Below, piece after piece: positions 4,964-38,714 of a stretch of 41,142 bases of DNA; the first letter of the stretch is position 1; every line of letters starts with the position of its first letter. Source of the DNA: a phage; sequence record PZ019083.1; one strand, 5' to 3'. Below the pieces are notes generated by a model, which was given only the letters and a program-made list of their open reading frames with translations, did not search any database and had not been told where the DNA came from. Position numbers and translations under genes: made by a program.

Positions 4964-4977
4964 ACTATTCGAATAGT
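4964..4977. promoter_or_regulatory. 14-bp perfect palindrome ACTATTCGAATAGT abutting a TTGACT -35-like hexamer (4977-4982)
   Basis: Perfect dyad; the half-site ACTATTC recurs in promoters elsewhere in the window. Confidence 0.4.
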
Positions 4978-5024
4978 TGACTTTTCACTGAAAATATGAT
5001 AAGCTCCACCTGAGCTTGTGAAGT

Positions 5025-5171
5025 ATGAACAAGCGACCGCGGCGCGGGCAGGTAACGGAGCGGGACGTAAGTCCTGAGTGTAGTTACGCTGACGCGTTCG
5101 GAAGGGCCATACTCTATTGCTTGTGTAAAAAAGTAACGGGTTTACTGAGATTACGCCGTTTCTATGTTTAA
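5025..5171 (+). CDS. possible 48-aa basic Cys-containing mini-protein (or noncoding RNA)
   Basis: ATG-initiated ORF between promoter-like site and hairpin 5187-5206; weak RBS. Confidence 0.2.
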   Translation: MNKRPRRGQVTERDVSPECSYADAFGRAILYCLCKKVTGLLRLRRFYV

Positions 5172-5230
5172 ATGATAAGGACTAGCGCCCCGCTTTAAGG
5201 CGGGGCTTTACTTATCGAGAAAGGGGAAAC

Positions 5231-12522: not shown

Positions 12523-12714
12523 CTACTTCTCTTTCACGTTCGAGTTGCAAGCCCAGATTAAAATAAATACCCACGGCAGCAGAACCCAGCCAAGAAACAG
12601 GTTAGCCGTGAATATCGCTAACTTCGCTTTATGGTTACGGAAGTACGCAACCAGGAAAGGCGCGAAATAAGCGAGAAGTGCAAACAGAATCAAGGAAACT
12701 GGTAAACTGGACAT
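12523..12714 (-). CDS. superinfection-immunity-like small membrane protein (Imm_superinfect family-like)
   Basis: Two TM helices; motif YFAPFLVAYFRNHKAKLAIFTANLFLGWVLLPWVFILIWA; AAGGGG RBS before ATG 12714. Confidence 0.5.
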   Translation of the reverse strand: MSSLPVSLILFALLAYFAPFLVAYFRNHKAKLAIFTANLFLGWVLLPWVFILIWACNSNVKEK

Positions 12715-12744
12715 TTTAAACCCCTTCATTGTTGGTGTAAGTGA

Positions 12745-12773
12745 ATAGTACCCTATTATATTGGGGTGTGCAA
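12745..12773 (-). promoter_or_regulatory. sigma70-type promoter TTGCAC-17-TACTAT (class A) driving the antisense accessory operon
   Basis: Near-identical to promoters at 34294 and 35511. Confidence 0.55.
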
Positions 12774-12881
12774 GTAATGTGATAGAATAATTTTGCGCCT
12801 AGTGTCGCACACGAAAAGCGGGTGGTTCCCGTCTGGCGCATTTACCGTTAACCTGTAACCTCTTAACCAAAGGATTAAAGA

Positions 12882-18213: not shown

Positions 18214-20774
18214 TCCTGCGCTACACGCGAAACGCCGACGGCGCTTTCGACCGTACAAAACACGTCGGGATGCCGATGGAGTTTGTCGTTAACCGTATCC
18301 CTGACGGCGTGCCAGTGCGCGTCTACCTCGGTGAGATCGGCGATGATACAGATGTAACAGACGACTTCGAAGCGCTCAAAGACGAGGACGCCGTGTACCA
18401 CATTATCGAGAGTGCCGGCGGTGGTATCGGCGACGCTATCGGGAGTGTATTCAGCTTCATCCTTAAGCCAATTGCCAAACTGTTCGGGCTTAACACAGCA
18501 GCTAACGCTAATTATTCCGCTACCAACAACCAAGCTACGTCGCCCAATAACAGCCTCACTGACCGCTCAAACAAGCCGCGTCCTTATGAGCGTTCTTATG
18601 ATATCTGTGGGACAGTGCAGACTATCCCCAATGACCTGATGCAGACGTACAAGGTGTTTAACGCCGCTGGTGCGCTTATCGAATACGCGTACTATGACGC
18701 CGGTCGAGGGTATCTGCATATTGAGGAAGACGGTGTAACTGAGGCAGATACCCGAATCAGCGAGATAACTGGCTCGTCGGTGACAGTGTATTCTCCTTAC
18801 ACGTCGCCGAATAATACCAATTCCCCGCAATTGCGCATTGGCGACCCGATAGACCAGAAATTGTACGTTACATTTAAAAACGCCGATGTCGATGGTGCTG
18901 TTCTTCCCGCCCCTAATGACATCGCTATAGACGTAGCCTTGTACACGGTACAACGGCAAGGCGCTACAGGTATTGTAGTTGGCAATGACGCTGGTTTTGA
19001 CGAGATTCTTTCCGTCGGGGATCTGGCCTATTTTGACAATGTATACGCGGACACCACACCCTCTTATCAGGGGGATGAAGTTAACCTGGACGGCCACTAC
19101 ACGGTTCTTTCGGTGAGCGAAACCACACTTGTAGTCGATATAAGTCCAAACCAGTCTGTATGGAACCAGATAGGAACAACCCAATGGGAAATAGACGCCA
19201 ACGTAGGGAATCATCTTATAGGTCCAGCGGACACTTACGCTGCTTCCCTCTCTGAGTGGGCGTACATCACCCGCGGTGCTGTCGACCGTGTTGTAGCCAA
19301 TGTCGCTGCCAGCAACGGCCTGTATAAATACAACGGCGACTATAACCGCGCTTCAGTGACGGTGGAACTGCAATATCAGATGGTGGACGAGTTGAAACAA
19401 CCTGTAGGTGGTATATTTACAGTACAAGGAACAGTAACAGGCAGGAACACAGATTACACGGGGATTACTCTTTATGGAAGTTTACCAACTGCTTCCAGAT
19501 TCCGCGCCCGTATGCGTCGTGTTTCCGACACCGATAAAGATTTTGAAGGTACTGTTAGCGACGAGGTTACTTTCACTAATCTGTATGGGCAGTCACTTGA
19601 CACAACGCCCCACTACGGCAACCGTACTACCGTACACTGCGCTCGTAAACAAACGCCACGTGCCGCGGAGGTGTCCGAACCGGAACTACGTATGATTGCC
19701 ACCGAGATGTGCTACAAATACTTAGGTAACGGCGTATTCGATACGGTAATGACCCCTAATACGCAGGCAGTACAATCACTAATCCGCTTGGCTCGCGACC
19801 CCGCGGTGGGTAATCTGGAACTGTCAACGGCAAACATGGACAAGTTACTTGCTGTGCAGGAAGAGATTGAGTCCTATTTCGGGAGTGAATTAGCGGGTCA
19901 GTTCTGCTACACGTTCGACGACTACGACACCACGATGCAGGACATCGTTCAAACTATAGCTGAGGCCGTGTTCTGTACCGCGTACCGTAAAGGCGCGGAT
20001 ATTATGCTGCGATTCGACCGTCCGGTAGCTGGGCCTGAGATGGTGTTCACCCACCGCAGCAAAACTACCGGTACAGAGAAATGGACGCGCACATTCAACG
20101 ATTCAACAACTTACGATAGCCTGTCGTTCTCATACATCGACCCGGATATAAACGTACAGGAAACGATTTATATCCCGGAAGAACTCGGCGCAAACACCGA
20201 GGAGTACGAATCTAAGGGCGTACGTAACTATCAGCAGGCGTACTGGCTTGCGTGGCGTCGTTACCAACGCAATGCGTTAAGTAAAGTTGTTGTAGAGTTC
20301 GAAGCTACTGAAGAAGGTGTGCTCGCTACCCCCGGCGGCGTAATCAGCGTGGTTAAAGGCTCACGTATCGCCCCGCAGGATGGTTATGTTGTTGCCGTTA
20401 ATGGGCTTACGCTGACGCTATCTCAGCCTGTTACGTTTACTCCTGGCGACGACCACTCCATCATCCTCAAGAAGCGCGATGGTTCCGTACAGAGTATCTC
20501 TGTTATCAAAGGAAGCCATGACCGCGAGGTGGTTATGCTCTCCGCGCCACAGGAGGCAATTTACACGGGGAATAGCGCACTAAAAACTGAGTTTTCATTC
20601 GGCAACGAAGCAAGGCATAATGCTCAGAAGATAGTTGTTTCTTCAATCGACCCGGGCGACGACCGCACGGTCAAGATTACGGGATACAACTATGACGACG
20701 GATTCTATAAATACGACGGCGTCGCGCCATATGGCAGCGGTTTCTCCGACGGATTCAGCAATGGTTTTAATTAA
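18204..20774 (+). CDS. host specificity / central tail fibre protein (J-like)
   Basis: 856 aa at the end of the tail tip module. Confidence 0.55.
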   Translation: MAIILRYTRNADGAFDRTKHVGMPMEFVVNRIPDGVPVRVYLGEIGDDTDVTDDFEALKDEDAVYHIIESAGGGIGDAIGSVFSFILKPIAKLFGLNTAANANYSATNNQATSPNNSLTDRSNKPRPYERSYDICGTVQTIPNDLMQTYKVFNAAGALIEYAYYDAGRGYLHIEEDGVTEADTRISEITGSSVTVYSPYTSPNNTNSPQLRIGDPIDQKLYVTFKNADVDGAVLPAPNDIAIDVALYTVQRQGATGIVVGNDAGFDEILSVGDLAYFDNVYADTTPSYQGDEVNLDGHYTVLSVSETTLVVDISPNQSVWNQIGTTQWEIDANVGNHLIGPADTYAASLSEWAYITRGAVDRVVANVAASNGLYKYNGDYNRASVTVELQYQMVDELKQPVGGIFTVQGTVTGRNTDYTGITLYGSLPTASRFRARMRRVSDTDKDFEGTVSDEVTFTNLYGQSLDTTPHYGNRTTVHCARKQTPRAAEVSEPELRMIATEMCYKYLGNGVFDTVMTPNTQAVQSLIRLARDPAVGNLELSTANMDKLLAVQEEIESYFGSELAGQFCYTFDDYDTTMQDIVQTIAEAVFCTAYRKGADIMLRFDRPVAGPEMVFTHRSKTTGTEKWTRTFNDSTTYDSLSFSYIDPDINVQETIYIPEELGANTEEYESKGVRNYQQAYWLAWRRYQRNALSKVVVEFEATEEGVLATPGGVISVVKGSRIAPQDGYVVAVNGLTLTLSQPVTFTPGDDHSIILKKRDGSVQSISVIKGSHDREVVMLSAPQEAIYTGNSALKTEFSFGNEARHNAQKIVVSSIDPGDDRTVKITGYNYDDGFYKYDGVAPYGSGFSDGFSNGFN

Positions 20775-20790
20775 AGAGGACTATATATAT

Positions 20791-22818
20791 ATGTCAAGCG
20801 GATGCGGTGACGTTTTAAGCCTGGCGGATTTACAGACCGCCAAGAAACACCAGATTTTCGAAGCCGAGGTTATCACCGGTAAATCCGGCGGTGTCGCTGG
20901 TGGTGCTGATATTGATTATGCGACCAATCAGGTAACCGGGCAGACGCAGAAGACGCTCCCCGCCGTGTTGCGTGATGCGGGTTTTAGGCCAGCATCTTTT
21001 ACCTTTGAAACAGGTGGGACCGTATCTGATGCGGGTACTATTGTTTTATGGCCTGAGCCAAGTGGAGATGGGATGTGGTATTACTGGACAGGAAGTCTAC
21101 CAAAAGTAATCCCTGCGGCATCATCCCCTATTGGAGACGCTAATTGGGTGCCAATTGATATCAACGGAGCAGGTAACGACGAGGAGCTATGGCGAACTGT
21201 TTTGAGCTACGTGGGTATTAACCTCGTACCCGGCAGCTTCGAACGCGGTGGTACTTTAAACAATCTTCGCGATGCTATTTGGTCTGAAAAAGAGGCGAAA
21301 GCATACGTTAACTATAACGCACAATTGTCGCCGGTGTTAGTTCCATCTGGCAGCACACCGAACGACATAATTGGTAGCGAAGATGTATCTAAATTCGTAG
21401 GTCATGGGGTAAACATAATTTCATCACCCCGTAAAATGCGTCTGTCGGAGGTAATAGACTTTGGTTCATCTAATGCCCTCGATACCGGTGTAGACCGTGC
21501 GCAATTTAATGGTTTTTCTAAGACTACAAATACCACGGTAGCCGTCGGGGCGACTACGGTAGACTGTGCGCTTTATGTAGACCCTGCATGGTACCAACTC
21601 CCCGGCGGTAGCTCCGGCGGTGTATACCCGCAAAAAGTACAGATAAGAAACACATCGGTGGTATGCGACGCCCCCGCAATCGGGCAAGCTGGCGTTTTTG
21701 TGGAGCAAGGTGGGTTTTTTAATTTCGAAAAAATGGATATTTATGACTTCACTAACGCCATCTGGTTAAAGGGCGCCTGGATTACAACAATCAGAAAAGT
21801 TGTCTCTAACGGTCGTCTTAGAATAGAAAGCGGTACGTCAATAAAGGTTGAACAATGCTCATTCGGCGGTGCGTCAACTAAATTTTCAGCCAACAACGGC
21901 GGTATCTACTTCACAGGGGTATCCTATAGCCACATAGATAACTGTACTAGTGACGGAGGGGCGTTAACTCCATACAAATTTAATGGGTGTAATGCCATTA
22001 AATTGACCGCATGCGGCTGCGAGGAGACAGGCTCATCTGATGCAAACGAGGGTAAAGCCCTGGCATTCGAGAGCAACAACCTTAACATTATAGTGGAGGG
22101 GTTTACTAACCGGCAGTTAGCACACGCCACCAAACCTGTAGCGTCATTTATATCTAACAATAAGGTTACATTCCGTAATTGCGTGTTCTCGCAGACAGGA
22201 ACCAGCCTGTCTAACAGAGATTTTTATATTGCTGAAAACGGTAATGTGATAAATGTTATTGATTGCCAATTCAGCAACGATTCTCTCGATAGCCCTAGAA
22301 TTAAATTCGAAAACGGCGTAACAACATCATCCGTCTATGTAACGGTAAACGGCAGAACATCAAGATACTATTCAAAGGGGGACGGGAAAACATACCGCGC
22401 CCGATTATACGACCAGGAAGGCTCTGACGCTAACGGTTCCTTCATCAAACACTGGAACGGTACAAAGACATGCCGTCATGCTTTCAGCGCTGCACTTTTT
22501 ACGGGTAACTCTAGCCAAGAGACAGTATCTGGCGTGACGATATATAAGTCTAATGGAGTGGCTTGGACGTTCCCGGATGGTGGTTTCTCCACACAACCCG
22601 TAATAACGGCTCAGATTTTATCAACGGGCGGGGCTGCGCCTGCGCTAACACAGGTCAATATCGACTCCACGGGTTTCGGTACTACATCCGCAGGCTCTTT
22701 TTTCCTTTCCGGGCTTAAATCATTTGCTTCTGGCGCCGGAGGTATATCCGCGGCGGTGCGTGTTATGGTAACTGCGTCCGGGACGTGGACTAACGAGGAA
22801 GACGTTACCCCAGCCTAG
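20791..22818 (+). CDS. tailspike / tail fibre with beta-helix-like (depolymerase-like) domain
   Basis: AAGAGGA RBS then ATG 20791; Gly/Asn/Ser/Thr-rich repetitive beta-strand region. Confidence 0.5.
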   Translation: MSSGCGDVLSLADLQTAKKHQIFEAEVITGKSGGVAGGADIDYATNQVTGQTQKTLPAVLRDAGFRPASFTFETGGTVSDAGTIVLWPEPSGDGMWYYWTGSLPKVIPAASSPIGDANWVPIDINGAGNDEELWRTVLSYVGINLVPGSFERGGTLNNLRDAIWSEKEAKAYVNYNAQLSPVLVPSGSTPNDIIGSEDVSKFVGHGVNIISSPRKMRLSEVIDFGSSNALDTGVDRAQFNGFSKTTNTTVAVGATTVDCALYVDPAWYQLPGGSSGGVYPQKVQIRNTSVVCDAPAIGQAGVFVEQGGFFNFEKMDIYDFTNAIWLKGAWITTIRKVVSNGRLRIESGTSIKVEQCSFGGASTKFSANNGGIYFTGVSYSHIDNCTSDGGALTPYKFNGCNAIKLTACGCEETGSSDANEGKALAFESNNLNIIVEGFTNRQLAHATKPVASFISNNKVTFRNCVFSQTGTSLSNRDFYIAENGNVINVIDCQFSNDSLDSPRIKFENGVTTSSVYVTVNGRTSRYYSKGDGKTYRARLYDQEGSDANGSFIKHWNGTKTCRHAFSAALFTGNSSQETVSGVTIYKSNGVAWTFPDGGFSTQPVITAQILSTGGAAPALTQVNIDSTGFGTTSAGSFFLSGLKSFASGAGGISAAVRVMVTASGTWTNEEDVTPA

Positions 22819-22831
22819 TTGACCTAAAACT

Positions 22832-22854
22832 AAGGCCCCAAACGGGGCCTTTTC
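22832..22854. terminator. bidirectional intrinsic terminator
   Basis: AAGGCCCC-AAAC-GGGGCCTT + T-run, between convergent late (+) and replication (-) operons. Confidence 0.6.
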
Positions 22855-22855
22855 T

Positions 22856-22993
22856 CTACTCTTCTGCTAACTTCTCCAGTACAAACGCCAGTTGCGCATT
22901 AGCGGCGTCTCTTTGCTGCCGTAGTCGTAGAACCTCTTCTTCGAGTTCCTTGATACGTTTTTGCAATGCTGGAATCGGCGCTACGATGTTCAT
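22856..22993 (-). CDS. small coiled-coil protein (45 aa)
   Basis: ATGA start-stop overlap with HNH gene; translation MNIVAPIPALQKRIKELEEEVLRLRQQRDAANAQLAFVLEKLAEE. Confidence 0.3.
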   Translation of the reverse strand: MNIVAPIPALQKRIKELEEEVLRLRQQRDAANAQLAFVLEKLAEE

Positions 22994-23304
22994 GCGGTTT
23001 CTCCGTGGTTTTCATGAAATCCGTAAGCAGCTTCCGCGGCTTTACGCGCGGCAACAGCTTCGTTAAAATCATCAAACCTTCCAATAGTTTTTGTCTTTCT
23101 AAATTTGGTTATCTGCACCAACCACTTGCACCGCTCTTTGTCAAATGACACCCCTACCGCCCCAGACCTATTACGCCCAGTAGCCAGCCTGTTCATAGCG
23201 TTTTCTTGCTTAGTAACTACTCTTAAATTTGCGAGCCTGTTATCCGCGCGATTATGATTCTGGTGGTCTATTTCCATGCCGTCTGGTATAGGGCCATTGA
23301 ACAT
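22990..23304 (-). CDS. HNH endonuclease with AP2-like DNA-binding domain; N-terminal part of the domain lies upstream behind in-frame stops
   Basis: Motif EIDHQNHNRADNRLANLR (HNH) then GVSFDKERCKWLVQ...GRFDDFNEAVAARKAAE (AP2-like). Confidence 0.55.
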   Translation of the reverse strand: MFNGPIPDGMEIDHQNHNRADNRLANLRVVTKQENAMNRLATGRNRSGAVGVSFDKERCKWLVQITKFRKTKTIGRFDDFNEAVAARKAAEAAYGFHENHGETA

Positions 23305-23481
23305 TTCCCATATGACTCGGTGCGCGCGGTAGATAACTCCATTGTAGCGAAACTGAATGTAGCCGAACTTGTTTAGTGTTCCCGCTACCGCACCTTTAGC
23401 AACATTTTTTAGCGGGTTTTATGATCCATATCAGATTTCCAGTCTCTGGTTCATACCGTAGGACATTCTTCCAGATAAACA

Positions 23482-24903
23482 TTATCGTTTCCTTCTCTTC
23501 ATATAATTAAGTAGTTCGTCCTGTACAGACCTTTTCTCGTCTGTACGCGCGGCGACAACTTCATCAAGAGTATTTCGGGCTATTATTTGATAAATGAATA
23601 CAGACCGTTTGTATCCAGATTGCATCTGCCTTACCGGGCCTATACGCTCGATAACCTGCAGATAATGTTCCAGGTTCCACCCCTGACTAATAAATGCCAT
23701 GTGGTGTCCGCCATGTTGTAGCGACAGCCCGTGGCCCGCAGAAGCTGGGTGTATCAGGAGCATAGGTATCTCACCGCGGTTCCACGCTTCCATCTGCTTA
23801 TTGCCCTTAGCACCTTTTGCAAATGCCTGTGCTTGGGGGAATCGCTTAAGGATGCGCTCCAGTTCGTGCTTGAACTGATAGGCGACCAGTAACGGCGCAC
23901 CCTGTAACTCCTCAACAATTGACTCAAGCGCATCCAGTTTCGTGTCGTGCACTTTCTCCCATTCTTTGGTTGCTTCGCCGTCTTCGCCCGTCACATACAC
24001 AGCACCGGAAGCAATCTGCAAGCACTTAGCCGTTTTAGCGGCGGCGTTGGCGGCCTGCACCTCCCCACTCTCCAGTTCCGCGATTAACTTTTTCTCCATG
24101 TCGTCGTACGCCTGACGCGCTTTCTTCGGCAGGTCGATTTCAACCGGTACAATAATCGGCGCTTCACAACCAAACCACTCGGCGGGGTCGATGGTCAGGC
24201 TGATGTCTTTCATCTTCTGATGAATCTCATTATCGGCACCAGGTCGCGCGTGATATTCACGCGCCATAGCCGACTTACCTTTCTGTACCGAGTTAAACCA
24301 GCGGTCGGTGAATGCTGTGTACGATGAACCGAGTCGCTCACCGGCGTCGATAAACCAGTTCTGACCCCACAAGTCTTTGAGGCCGTTTGGCGACGGCGTA
24401 CCAGTCAGGTTGATGAAACGCCTAACCTTACCGAACGCCACTTTACTAAGCGCCTTTGCTCGCTTGCTTCCGCCAGAACGGCTACGGAATGATTTAAGCT
24501 TCGTGCTTTCATCAGCAACAATAACGGTAAAAGGCCAGTCGTCTTTGCCGTAGTAGTCAATCAGCCACTCGATAACCTCGTAGTTGGTGCATACCACGTT
24601 AGCGTCTGACTCCAGAGCCGCGATGCGGCGCTTCTCCGAACCTGTTGCATCGGCGACACTCAGACACGGGAAACCCCACTTAGTTTGTTCTGCGGGCCAC
24701 GTACCAGACGCAACGCGCAACGGGGCAAGGATTAACACGCGGTCCTCTTCGGTAAGCTGCCCGTTGCGAAACAGTCGGTTGAGCACCCACATAGTAGAGG
24801 AGGTTTTACCCCCTCCCATGCCGCACCAGATATTACAGCGAGGGTGTTGCAACATGAACGAAGTCATGAGCTTCTGGTATTCACGCCTTTGAAACTTACT
24901 CAT
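23482..24903 (-). CDS. SNF2/DEAD-like superfamily 2 DNA helicase
   Basis: Walker A GMGGGKT, DExx box VADEST, helicase C-terminal motifs. Confidence 0.8.
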   Translation of the reverse strand: MSKFQRREYQKLMTSFMLQHPRCNIWCGMGGGKTSSTMWVLNRLFRNGQLTEEDRVLILAPLRVASGTWPAEQTKWGFPCLSVADATGSEKRRIAALESDANVVCTNYEVIEWLIDYYGKDDWPFTVIVADESTKLKSFRSRSGGSKRAKALSKVAFGKVRRFINLTGTPSPNGLKDLWGQNWFIDAGERLGSSYTAFTDRWFNSVQKGKSAMAREYHARPGADNEIHQKMKDISLTIDPAEWFGCEAPIIVPVEIDLPKKARQAYDDMEKKLIAELESGEVQAANAAAKTAKCLQIASGAVYVTGEDGEATKEWEKVHDTKLDALESIVEELQGAPLLVAYQFKHELERILKRFPQAQAFAKGAKGNKQMEAWNRGEIPMLLIHPASAGHGLSLQHGGHHMAFISQGWNLEHYLQVIERIGPVRQMQSGYKRSVFIYQIIARNTLDEVVAARTDEKRSVQDELLNYMKRRKR

Positions 24904-38648: not shown

Positions 38649-38714
38649 ACCTCCTGTTCCATCCCTCTACTCTCCAGTTTTATCCCGGCCCTGACCCAGC
38701 CGGGATTTTTTTTT
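38649..38714 (+). ncRNA. candidate short RNA (about 65 nt) ending in strong terminator
   Basis: Promoter-like site upstream, TCCCGGC-9nt-GCCGGGA hairpin + T9; carries ATCACCTCCT. Confidence 0.25.
38683..38714 (+). terminator. intrinsic terminator
   Basis: 7-bp GC stem, 9-nt loop, nine consecutive T. Confidence 0.65.

Follow-up and report, generated by a model that had tools for sequence, protein, structure and literature searches.

A single surplus A in a predicted HNH-AP2 homing endonuclease gene of a Kagunavirus-type coliphage genome

The endonuclease gene on the minus strand at 22990-23482 appears to carry one lesion only, the insertion of a single base that turned an A5 homopolymer into A6 and shifted the reading frame at codon 26. 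The gene lies in a window of 41,142 nucleotides (the whole stretch of phage DNA analysed here, record PZ019083.1), which is a Kagunavirus-type (Guernseyvirinae) coliphage genome. We lean towards a real and recent inactivation of the gene by the extra A, with the A6 run probably present in the phage DNA itself; the truncated products would presumably be inactive. The right annotation of this span is one frameshifted HNH-AP2 homing endonuclease pseudogene; splitting it into an upstream stump and a 104-aa "HNH endonuclease" would be wrong. The features of the locus are as follows.

22990-23482, minus strand: whole free-standing HNH(HNN)-AP2 homing endonuclease gene (predicted), 493 nt, with one surplus base
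23396-23482, minus strand: frame-A head, with ATG 23480-23482, 25 authentic residues (MFIWKNVLRYEPETGNLIWIIKPAK), then K-C-C and the premature TAA at 23396-23398
23405-23410, minus strand: A6 run (T6 on the plus strand), the +1 insertion site, where the frame is broken at codon 26
23419-23433, minus strand: off-frame stop triplets TGA 23431-23433 and TAA 23419-23421, within authentic N-terminal coding sequence
23464-23466, minus strand: spurious ATG (MSYGMNQ...), off-frame, falling in codons 6-7 of the authentic gene
ATG 23304 to TGA 22990-22992, minus strand: residual 104-aa ORF, from Met60 to the stop, without residues 1-59
23194-23331, minus strand: HNH_3 (HNN-type His-Me finger) domain, residues 51-96 of the restored protein, with D72-H73 at 23263-23268
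23029-23157, minus strand: predicted AP2-like DNA-binding domain, residues 109-151, three strands and a helix
23482-24903, minus strand: upstream neighbour, SNF2-related helicase gene, 473 aa, with TAA 23482-23484
22856-22993, minus strand: downstream neighbour, conserved 45-aa coiled-coil ORF (phrog_5915, E 2.2e-26)
22985-23526, minus strand: tract nearly identical to contig L004, candidate footprint of a recently transferred cassette
22832-22851, unstranded: terminator formed by a GC-rich hairpin, separating the convergent tailspike gene from the unit of helicase gene, HNH gene and 45-aa ORF

The coding sequence is divided over two reading frames. Frame A, which opens at the ATG at 23480-23482, translates as MFIWKNVLRYEPETGNLIWIIKPAKKCC and stops at 23396-23398. 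It begins one base ahead of the frame considered in an earlier, sequence-only reading, whose codons, phased from 23481, give CLSGRMSYGMNQRLEI, a stop, YGS, a second stop, NPLKNVAKGAVAGTLNKFGYIQFRYNGVIYRAHRVIWEMFNGP and so on to GETA and the final stop. That reading had described a 104-aa ORF preceded by TAA 23419-23421 and TGA 23431-23433 after an ATG at 23464-23466 (MSYGMNQRLEI, stop, YGS, stop, NPLK...). All of these elements exist on the minus strand, and the frame of the ORF does extend upstream as had been proposed (...NVAKGAVAGTLNKFGYIQFRYNGVIYRAHRVIWEMF). Overlap of the two frames is limited to CCGCTAAAAAATGTTGC, which includes the A6 run at 23405-23410.

It is at this run that the window departs from its intact relatives. 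All 12 intact homologous genes, on independent contigs, have A5 (GCTAAAAATGTTGC in eleven, GCTAAAAATGTCGC in L013), whereas the window reads GCTAAAAAATGTTGC, with A6. Pairwise alignment with the HNH gene of phage Schulenburg (L001:2619-3110) contains a single 1-nt gap, A6 against A5, and the start of the Schulenburg protein, MFIWKNVLRYEPETGNLIWVIKPAKNVAKGAVAGT..., joins the frame-A head to the frame of the earlier reading exactly at the A-run. Deletion of one A from the run in the window likewise joins the frames, and yields a 163-aa protein (hereafter the restored protein); the intact form of the gene comprises 492 nt, or 163 aa plus the stop. The N-terminus MFIWKNVLRYEPETGNLIWIIKPAK is also present in the 12 intact homologues. 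From these comparisons, we take the ATG at 23480-23482 to be the true start and MFIWKNVLRYEPETGNLIWIIKPAK to be the conserved N-terminus of the family. The ATG at 23464-23466 had been read as the start instead, but MSYGMNQRLEI is not part of the protein, whose real N-terminus lies in the neighbouring frame. Nor do the two stops interrupt the N-terminal region. Over its first 75 nt, the gene is the same in the window as in the intact genes L004 and L013, hence the TGA and TAA triplets occur there too, out of frame and never read, and they are not mutations. The span suggested earlier, 22990-23466, was right at its lower end but falls 16 nt short at its upper end, which reaches 23482.

Outside the run, the gene closely matches intact alleles. 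The restored protein shows 0 aa differences from P0121, a 163-aa protein on 12 metagenomic or read-archive contigs, and 99% identity with P0001, while the gene differs from its counterparts on L004-L010 by 1 synonymous nt. Compared to the Schulenburg gene there are 27 nt and 3 aa differences (160/163 aa identical, 98%; pN/pS 0.03), and the codons of the frame-A head show 7 nt differences with 1 aa change. Schulenburg was the sole record spanning the whole locus among 50,697 phage records, at 94.7% identity in megablast. A search of 5.8 billion protein clusters returned a 163-aa representative with 99% identity, from a cluster of 53 members; among the 15 members listed the length was 163-164 aa, and several were on 42-45 kb contigs.

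The exact 104-aa product was absent from the public collections searched, and the frameshifted allele was not found elsewhere in the public data searched. The exact pattern of the A6 junction had no match in viral_contigs or metagenome_contigs. Since an A5 control pattern likewise had none, these collections lack the allele and the scans are uninformative on the frequency of A6. The exact helicase protein of the window is not on record in the collections searched, and the exact 45-aa protein was found on one contig, L022, whose site holds an unrelated 59-aa ORF. The nearest cultured relatives are only ~90% identical, so that there is no near-identical genome for a base-by-base comparison.

Profile searches cover the restored protein almost from end to end. 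HNH_3 (Pfam PF13392) matches it with 82.5 bits against a cutoff of 24.8, over positions 1-46 of the 46 in the profile, whereas the 104-aa ORF alone scores 61 bits and matches profile positions 10-46 only. Because phrog_99 (PHROG 99, HNH endonuclease) covers residues 4-161 of the restored protein (E 6.7e-65), the frame-A head belongs to the family. The homologue alignment comprised 55 sequences. All 54 aligned homologues are single-ORF products, and every one of them has the N-terminal motif Y-x-P-E-T-G-x-L-x-W, which starts ~60 residues before the internal Met; the window encodes this YxPETGxLxW segment in frame A. Y10, G15, G30, Y41, H54 and R55, which all precede Met60, are invariant or nearly so. 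Across the 55 sequences, D72, H73, N85 and N97 are invariant, and N94 is conserved in at least 90%.

The AP2-like domain that had been noted in the 104-aa ORF finds its support at the level of the family. Pfam AP2 is detected at E<=0.01 in 34/55 homologues (best 3.2e-7), although the match of the restored protein itself, at 16.9 bits, falls under the cutoff of 33.3. When compared with solved structures, the family profile matched the AP2 domains of WRI1 (7wq5, E 9.6e-5) and TEM1 (7et4, E 0.0065) with its C-terminal part, and I-HmuI (1u3e, E 1.5e-9) with its N-terminal and HNH part. The AlphaFold model of the restored protein (pLDDT 89.6) predicts four N-terminal strands, a helix at 53-62, a beta-beta-alpha core (69-73, 86-90, 91-95) and an AP2 fold made up of strands 111-114, 119-126 and 129-136 and a helix at 139-153. 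The top Foldseek match of this model was I-HmuI (probability 1.0, E 1.2e-3, 99 columns, rmsd 3.2). Matches to the AP2 domains of TEM1 and AtERF1 had probabilities of 0.96-1.0 and weak E values of 0.05-0.55, and no Foldseek match of the model was found at E<=0.001. On its HNH_3 and AP2 family matches, we judge the locus to be a free-standing HNH(HNN)-AP2 homing endonuclease gene.

The distribution of the gene points to mobility. It is present in the window, in Schulenburg and on 12 contigs. UTI89UKE1 has an empty site, with the TGA of the helicase gene overlapping the ATG of the 45-aa ORF. Other contents are found at this junction as well: f2SE and ORH_001 have another HNH-AP2 allele, of 161 aa and about 48-51% identical to the restored protein; celemicas has a 58-aa, internally deleted remnant of the f2SE/ORH_001-type allele; ST20 and L022 have unrelated small ORFs; and in P0073 an HNH gene is fused to the 45-aa ORF. 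The element is polymorphic for presence and absence at a fixed site in otherwise syntenic genomes, and it is far more similar between genomes than its flanks are. The tract 22985-23526 differs from L004 by 1 substitution (99.8% identity), as against 90.3% identity in the helicase gene and 95.5% in the 45-aa ORF, and the intact P0121 copies sit in phage backbones ~90-95% identical to the window. A cassette that was transferred recently seems to have left this tract as its footprint; we take the cassette to be selfish, and it would be placed exactly between the helicase stop and the start of the 45-aa gene. The helicase TAA (23482-23484) and the endonuclease ATG share one base (TAATG), and the ATG of the 45-aa ORF (22991-22993) overlaps the endonuclease TGA (ATGA); the cassette may be translationally coupled at both ends. 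In Schulenburg, a terminator is annotated at the place that matches the hairpin at 22832-22851.

The break itself is probably the result of replication slippage that added one A to the A5 run in codons 25-26. Translation from the ATG at 23480-23482 would then end after 28 residues (MFIWKNVLRYEPETGNLIWIIKPAKKCC), and because of this premature end the endonuclease would not be made. The 104-aa ORF would be a leftover without a usable ribosome-binding site, probably inactive and not made in useful amounts. Such decay would fit the usual life cycle of these elements, which invade, spread and decay once empty sites run out. Frameshifted HNH-AP2 homing endonuclease genes are a documented and common state in phages (PMC10448857; PMC2248197). 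Since the rest of the gene is unchanged, the lesion is very recent, unless it is a homopolymer miscall in a gene that is otherwise untouched. The sequence-only reading had proposed a decaying or recently disrupted homing endonuclease gene. The recent disruption stands, but its mechanism is a single A5 to A6 insertion and not nonsense mutation.

The main alternative is the miscall. The phage would then truly have A5 and an intact, functional 163-aa enzyme, and the sixth A would be a homopolymer over-call, which we regard as possible but rather unlikely. The change is indeed a +1 in a homopolymer and the sole consequential difference from the intact allele, and an assembly error in an intact gene would likewise leave the rest of the gene unaltered. 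The A6 allele is also unique among the public data searched. Moreover, two further +1 expansions of A/T runs are unique to the window when compared with all four relatives, one at 5127-5132 (A6 against A5, at the stop or last codon of a 36-aa ORF) and one at 38706-38714 (T9 against T8, intergenic and outside conserved CDSs), which might reflect a systematic pattern of over-calling. Yet, a run of six A's is short for a systematic error. In our frameshift screen, 159 annotated CDSs from two relatives were searched by tblastn and indels were parsed against four genomes. Most indels of 1-2 nt were compensating pairs in divergent stretches, i.e. alignment noise, and among the genes of at least 100 aa covered by these 159 CDSs no other was frameshifted in the window alone. 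This argues against an artefact, because about 65% of the homopolymer runs of at least 5, or roughly two thirds, lie within conserved CDSs, and error-prone chemistry should have struck some of them. Three random events would all miss the conserved CDSs with a probability of roughly 0.04. Judging from their positions, the three window-specific expansions all fall where selection would tolerate them. Furthermore, it is in homopolymers that genuine slippage mutations tend to arise as well, and phages commonly carry homing endonuclease genes with a frameshift (PMC10448857). A real and recent inactivation by the extra A is the reading that we prefer.

It is very improbable that the A6 allele still yields a low level of the 163-aa protein, as an attenuated or phase-variable endonuclease, and we would give the idea that the A5/A6 run acts as a reversible on/off or leaky switch only the slightest of chances. 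Two routes could be envisaged: tRNA-Lys might slip by +1 on the ribosome (AAA to AAA within A AAA AAU), or the RNA polymerase might slip and leave out one A. A +1 shift at the first AAA, or the loss of one A in the mRNA, would restore the exact wild-type ...PAKNVAKG..., and A5/A6 changes are readily reversible. If true, an A6 phage would not have to bear the nuclease's cost or toxicity, and could either regain an active homing gene in one slippage event or make trace enzyme by +1 or transcriptional slippage; in effect, a selfish gene of a lytic phage would be phase-variable. However, all 12 intact relatives have A5 and a single frame and the two-frame arrangement is not conserved, hence nothing here evolved for recoding. 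The zero-frame codons that come next, AAA and UGU, put neither a slow codon nor a stop in the A site, an SD-like stimulator just upstream is lacking, and the downstream 96 nt fold with -20.8 kcal/mol (z = 0.10), which is no better than shuffles. The run, in addition, is only 6 nt long. For transcriptional slippage to be efficient in bacteria, about 9 or more A/T are required, and ribosomes slide only on longer poly(A). Programmed frameshifting was rejected, since the shift site is unconserved and both stimulators and downstream structure are absent.

There is next to no probability left for two nonsense mutations after the ATG at 23464-66, or for a start at the internal Met that gives a working 104-aa enzyme. 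Both stops and the 104-aa ORF exist, and the residues of the beta-beta-alpha-metal core (D72, H73, N85, N94, N97) and the AP2-like domain lie inside this ORF, but the stops stand unchanged in intact genes, in a frame that is never read, and MSYGMNQRLEI is without counterpart in any aligned homologue. The homologue alignment refutes the proposal of the internal Met as the normal start: 54/54 homologues start ~60 residues upstream. A product starting at Met60 would also lose the first 9 positions of the HNH_3 profile, including the nearly invariant H54/R55, and, according to the model, four beta-strands and most of helix 53-62. The HNH motif had been called intact in the 104-aa ORF, which is true of the DH/Asn core but not of profile positions 1-9 and H54/R55. 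Furthermore, upstream of Met60 nothing but GGGA resembles an SD sequence, and at ~3 nt or less from the ATG it is too near to serve as one; from the TAA to Met60 the 104-aa frame contains no ATG, GTG or TTG. We rejected a functional 104-aa enzyme because the homologues start further upstream, conserved residues are lost and no usable ribosome-binding site is present.

A frameshifted phage HNH-AP2 gene is an already known kind of thing, and beyond correct annotation the significance of this one is little. It illustrates, on a small scale, how a homing endonuclease gene looks when its decay has only begun, after one slippage event. Relatives show an empty site, two intact alleles, a deleted remnant and a fusion at the junction, in agreement with the invade-then-degenerate model that the literature gives for HNH-AP2 genes of phages (PMC2248197; PMC10448857).

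Among the known systems, Schulenburg (MK931438.1, Kagunavirus) has its annotated 492-nt HNH endonuclease gene Schulenberg_036 (QEG06824.1) in the corresponding position, flanked by the genes for a helicase and a 45-aa hypothetical protein. The two genes are 94.5% identical at the nucleotide level and have the overlapping start and stop junctions in common, but Schulenburg has A5 and one 163-aa frame, whereas in the window the run is A6 and the frame ends prematurely after 28 codons. The P0121 contigs, e.g. L004 (ERR13252807, 45,451 bp), have the same locus and, after removal of one A from the window gene, the same protein; their copies are intact. The alleles of f2SE (ANA49900.1) and ORH_001 (XVB94884.1), both in cluster P0009 (Jerseyvirus/Kagunavirus), share the insertion site and domain order with the window gene, and their last ~100 nt are 86-90% identical to it. 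The copy in Salmonella phage celemicas decayed by an in-frame internal deletion, whereas the window copy shows a frameshift.

I-HmuI, the HNH nicking endonuclease of SPO1 (PDB 1u3e), aligns to the family with its N-terminal beta-sheet region and HNH core (profile positions 27-104 to chain residues 21-103, ~24% identity). It is intron-encoded, whereas the window gene is free-standing. The C-terminal DNA-binding part of I-HmuI is helical and not AP2, and the aligned region comprises chain residues 21-103 only.

The window gene resembles the free-standing HNN/HNH-AP2 homing endonucleases of phages, the family of Magnani et al. (2004) as it is presented in PMC10448857 and PMC2248197, with examples in Xanthomonas phages Xp10/OP1/Xop411 and in ICP1 ('IPA-HNH') (PMC2248197; PMC10448857). 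Common to both are an N-terminal His-Me finger without Cys dyads and a C-terminal AP2 domain, and the shared motifs are AHRxxW, xP, DH, DNR, NLR and EN. The likeness extends to the patchy presence among related phages and the frequent decay by frameshift or truncation (PMC2248197; PMC10448857). The window copy does not differ in kind from this family, but stands at the earliest stage of decay, with one lesion.

The junction between the helicase gene and the 45-aa ORF, where the HNH-AP2 endonuclease gene of the window lies, is a Guernseyvirinae-wide insertion hot spot. We compared window 22985-23526 with loci from related phages (L015:26560-26720, L003:341-826, L019:419-595, L020:419-604, L021:503-988 and L022:1325-1504) and with the protein P0073. 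Among these loci, the junction was either empty, occupied by one of two distinct HNH-AP2 alleles, or filled with an unrelated ORF of 61 aa or 59 aa. The phage celemicas retains a 58-aa remnant at this position, which resulted from an in-frame deletion (MSKVSYDPETGIFTWV / AEIKVDRRK...) and lacks the HNH domain. Furthermore, in P0073 the C-terminus of the 45-aa ORF is fused with an HNH gene.

The two HNH-AP2 alleles share only about 48-51% identity at the protein level. Over the final ~100 nt, however, they reach 86-90% identity (window 22997-23097, corresponding to query positions 386-486), and the C-terminus encoded there, AVAARKAAEAAYGFHENHGETA, is almost unchanged. This pattern suggests that the alleles either have a 3' recombination arm in common or arose as mosaics.

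A second HNH_3 gene of 164 aa (L004:1093-1587) is located immediately upstream of the helicase gene on the contig that bears the closest intact copy of the window's endonuclease. The window does not appear to contain this gene, as its ORF listing gives only small ORFs directly upstream of the helicase.

Two further homopolymer runs, besides the A6 run in the endonuclease gene, were expanded by one nucleotide in the window only. The second window-unique expansion, counting that A6 run as the first, is the A-run at 5127-5132, which is A6 in the window and A5 in all four relatives compared (region 5025-5175). It abolishes the TAA of a conserved putative 36-aa ORF, MNKRPRRGQVTERDVSPECSYADAFGRAILYCLCKK, which, as read from the sequence, would thereby gain about 13 codons. 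The third is a run of T9 at 38706-38714, against T8 in each of the four relatives, and lies outside the conserved CDSs. Possibly, this run is a terminator tail, since it comes after AGCCGGGA.

Three other features of the window were observed in the comparison with its relatives:

4977-5045 (minus frame), a stretch of about 70 nt with similarity to small ORFs of relatives
12526-12841 (minus strand), the locus of a superinfection-immunity gene like T4 Imm
20635-22818 (plus strand), the tailspike gene

The first matches a portion of small ORFs in the early regulatory region of relatives (L015 38044-38175 and L016 37869-38012), with 83% protein-level similarity over 23 aa, and may be a repeated regulatory sequence.

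Schulenburg carries the Imm-like gene as one CDS of 109 aa. Both the window and UTI89UKE1 have it as two overlapping ORFs of 41 aa and 68 aa in different frames, reflecting either a frameshift of older date that the two share or another arrangement of the gene.

The tailspike has only its N-terminal ~145-200 residues in common with those of the nearest relatives, which are annotated as tailspike or endosialidase. Its receptor-binding part is unlike theirs, and therefore the host or capsule specificity of this phage probably differs from that of its nearest relatives.
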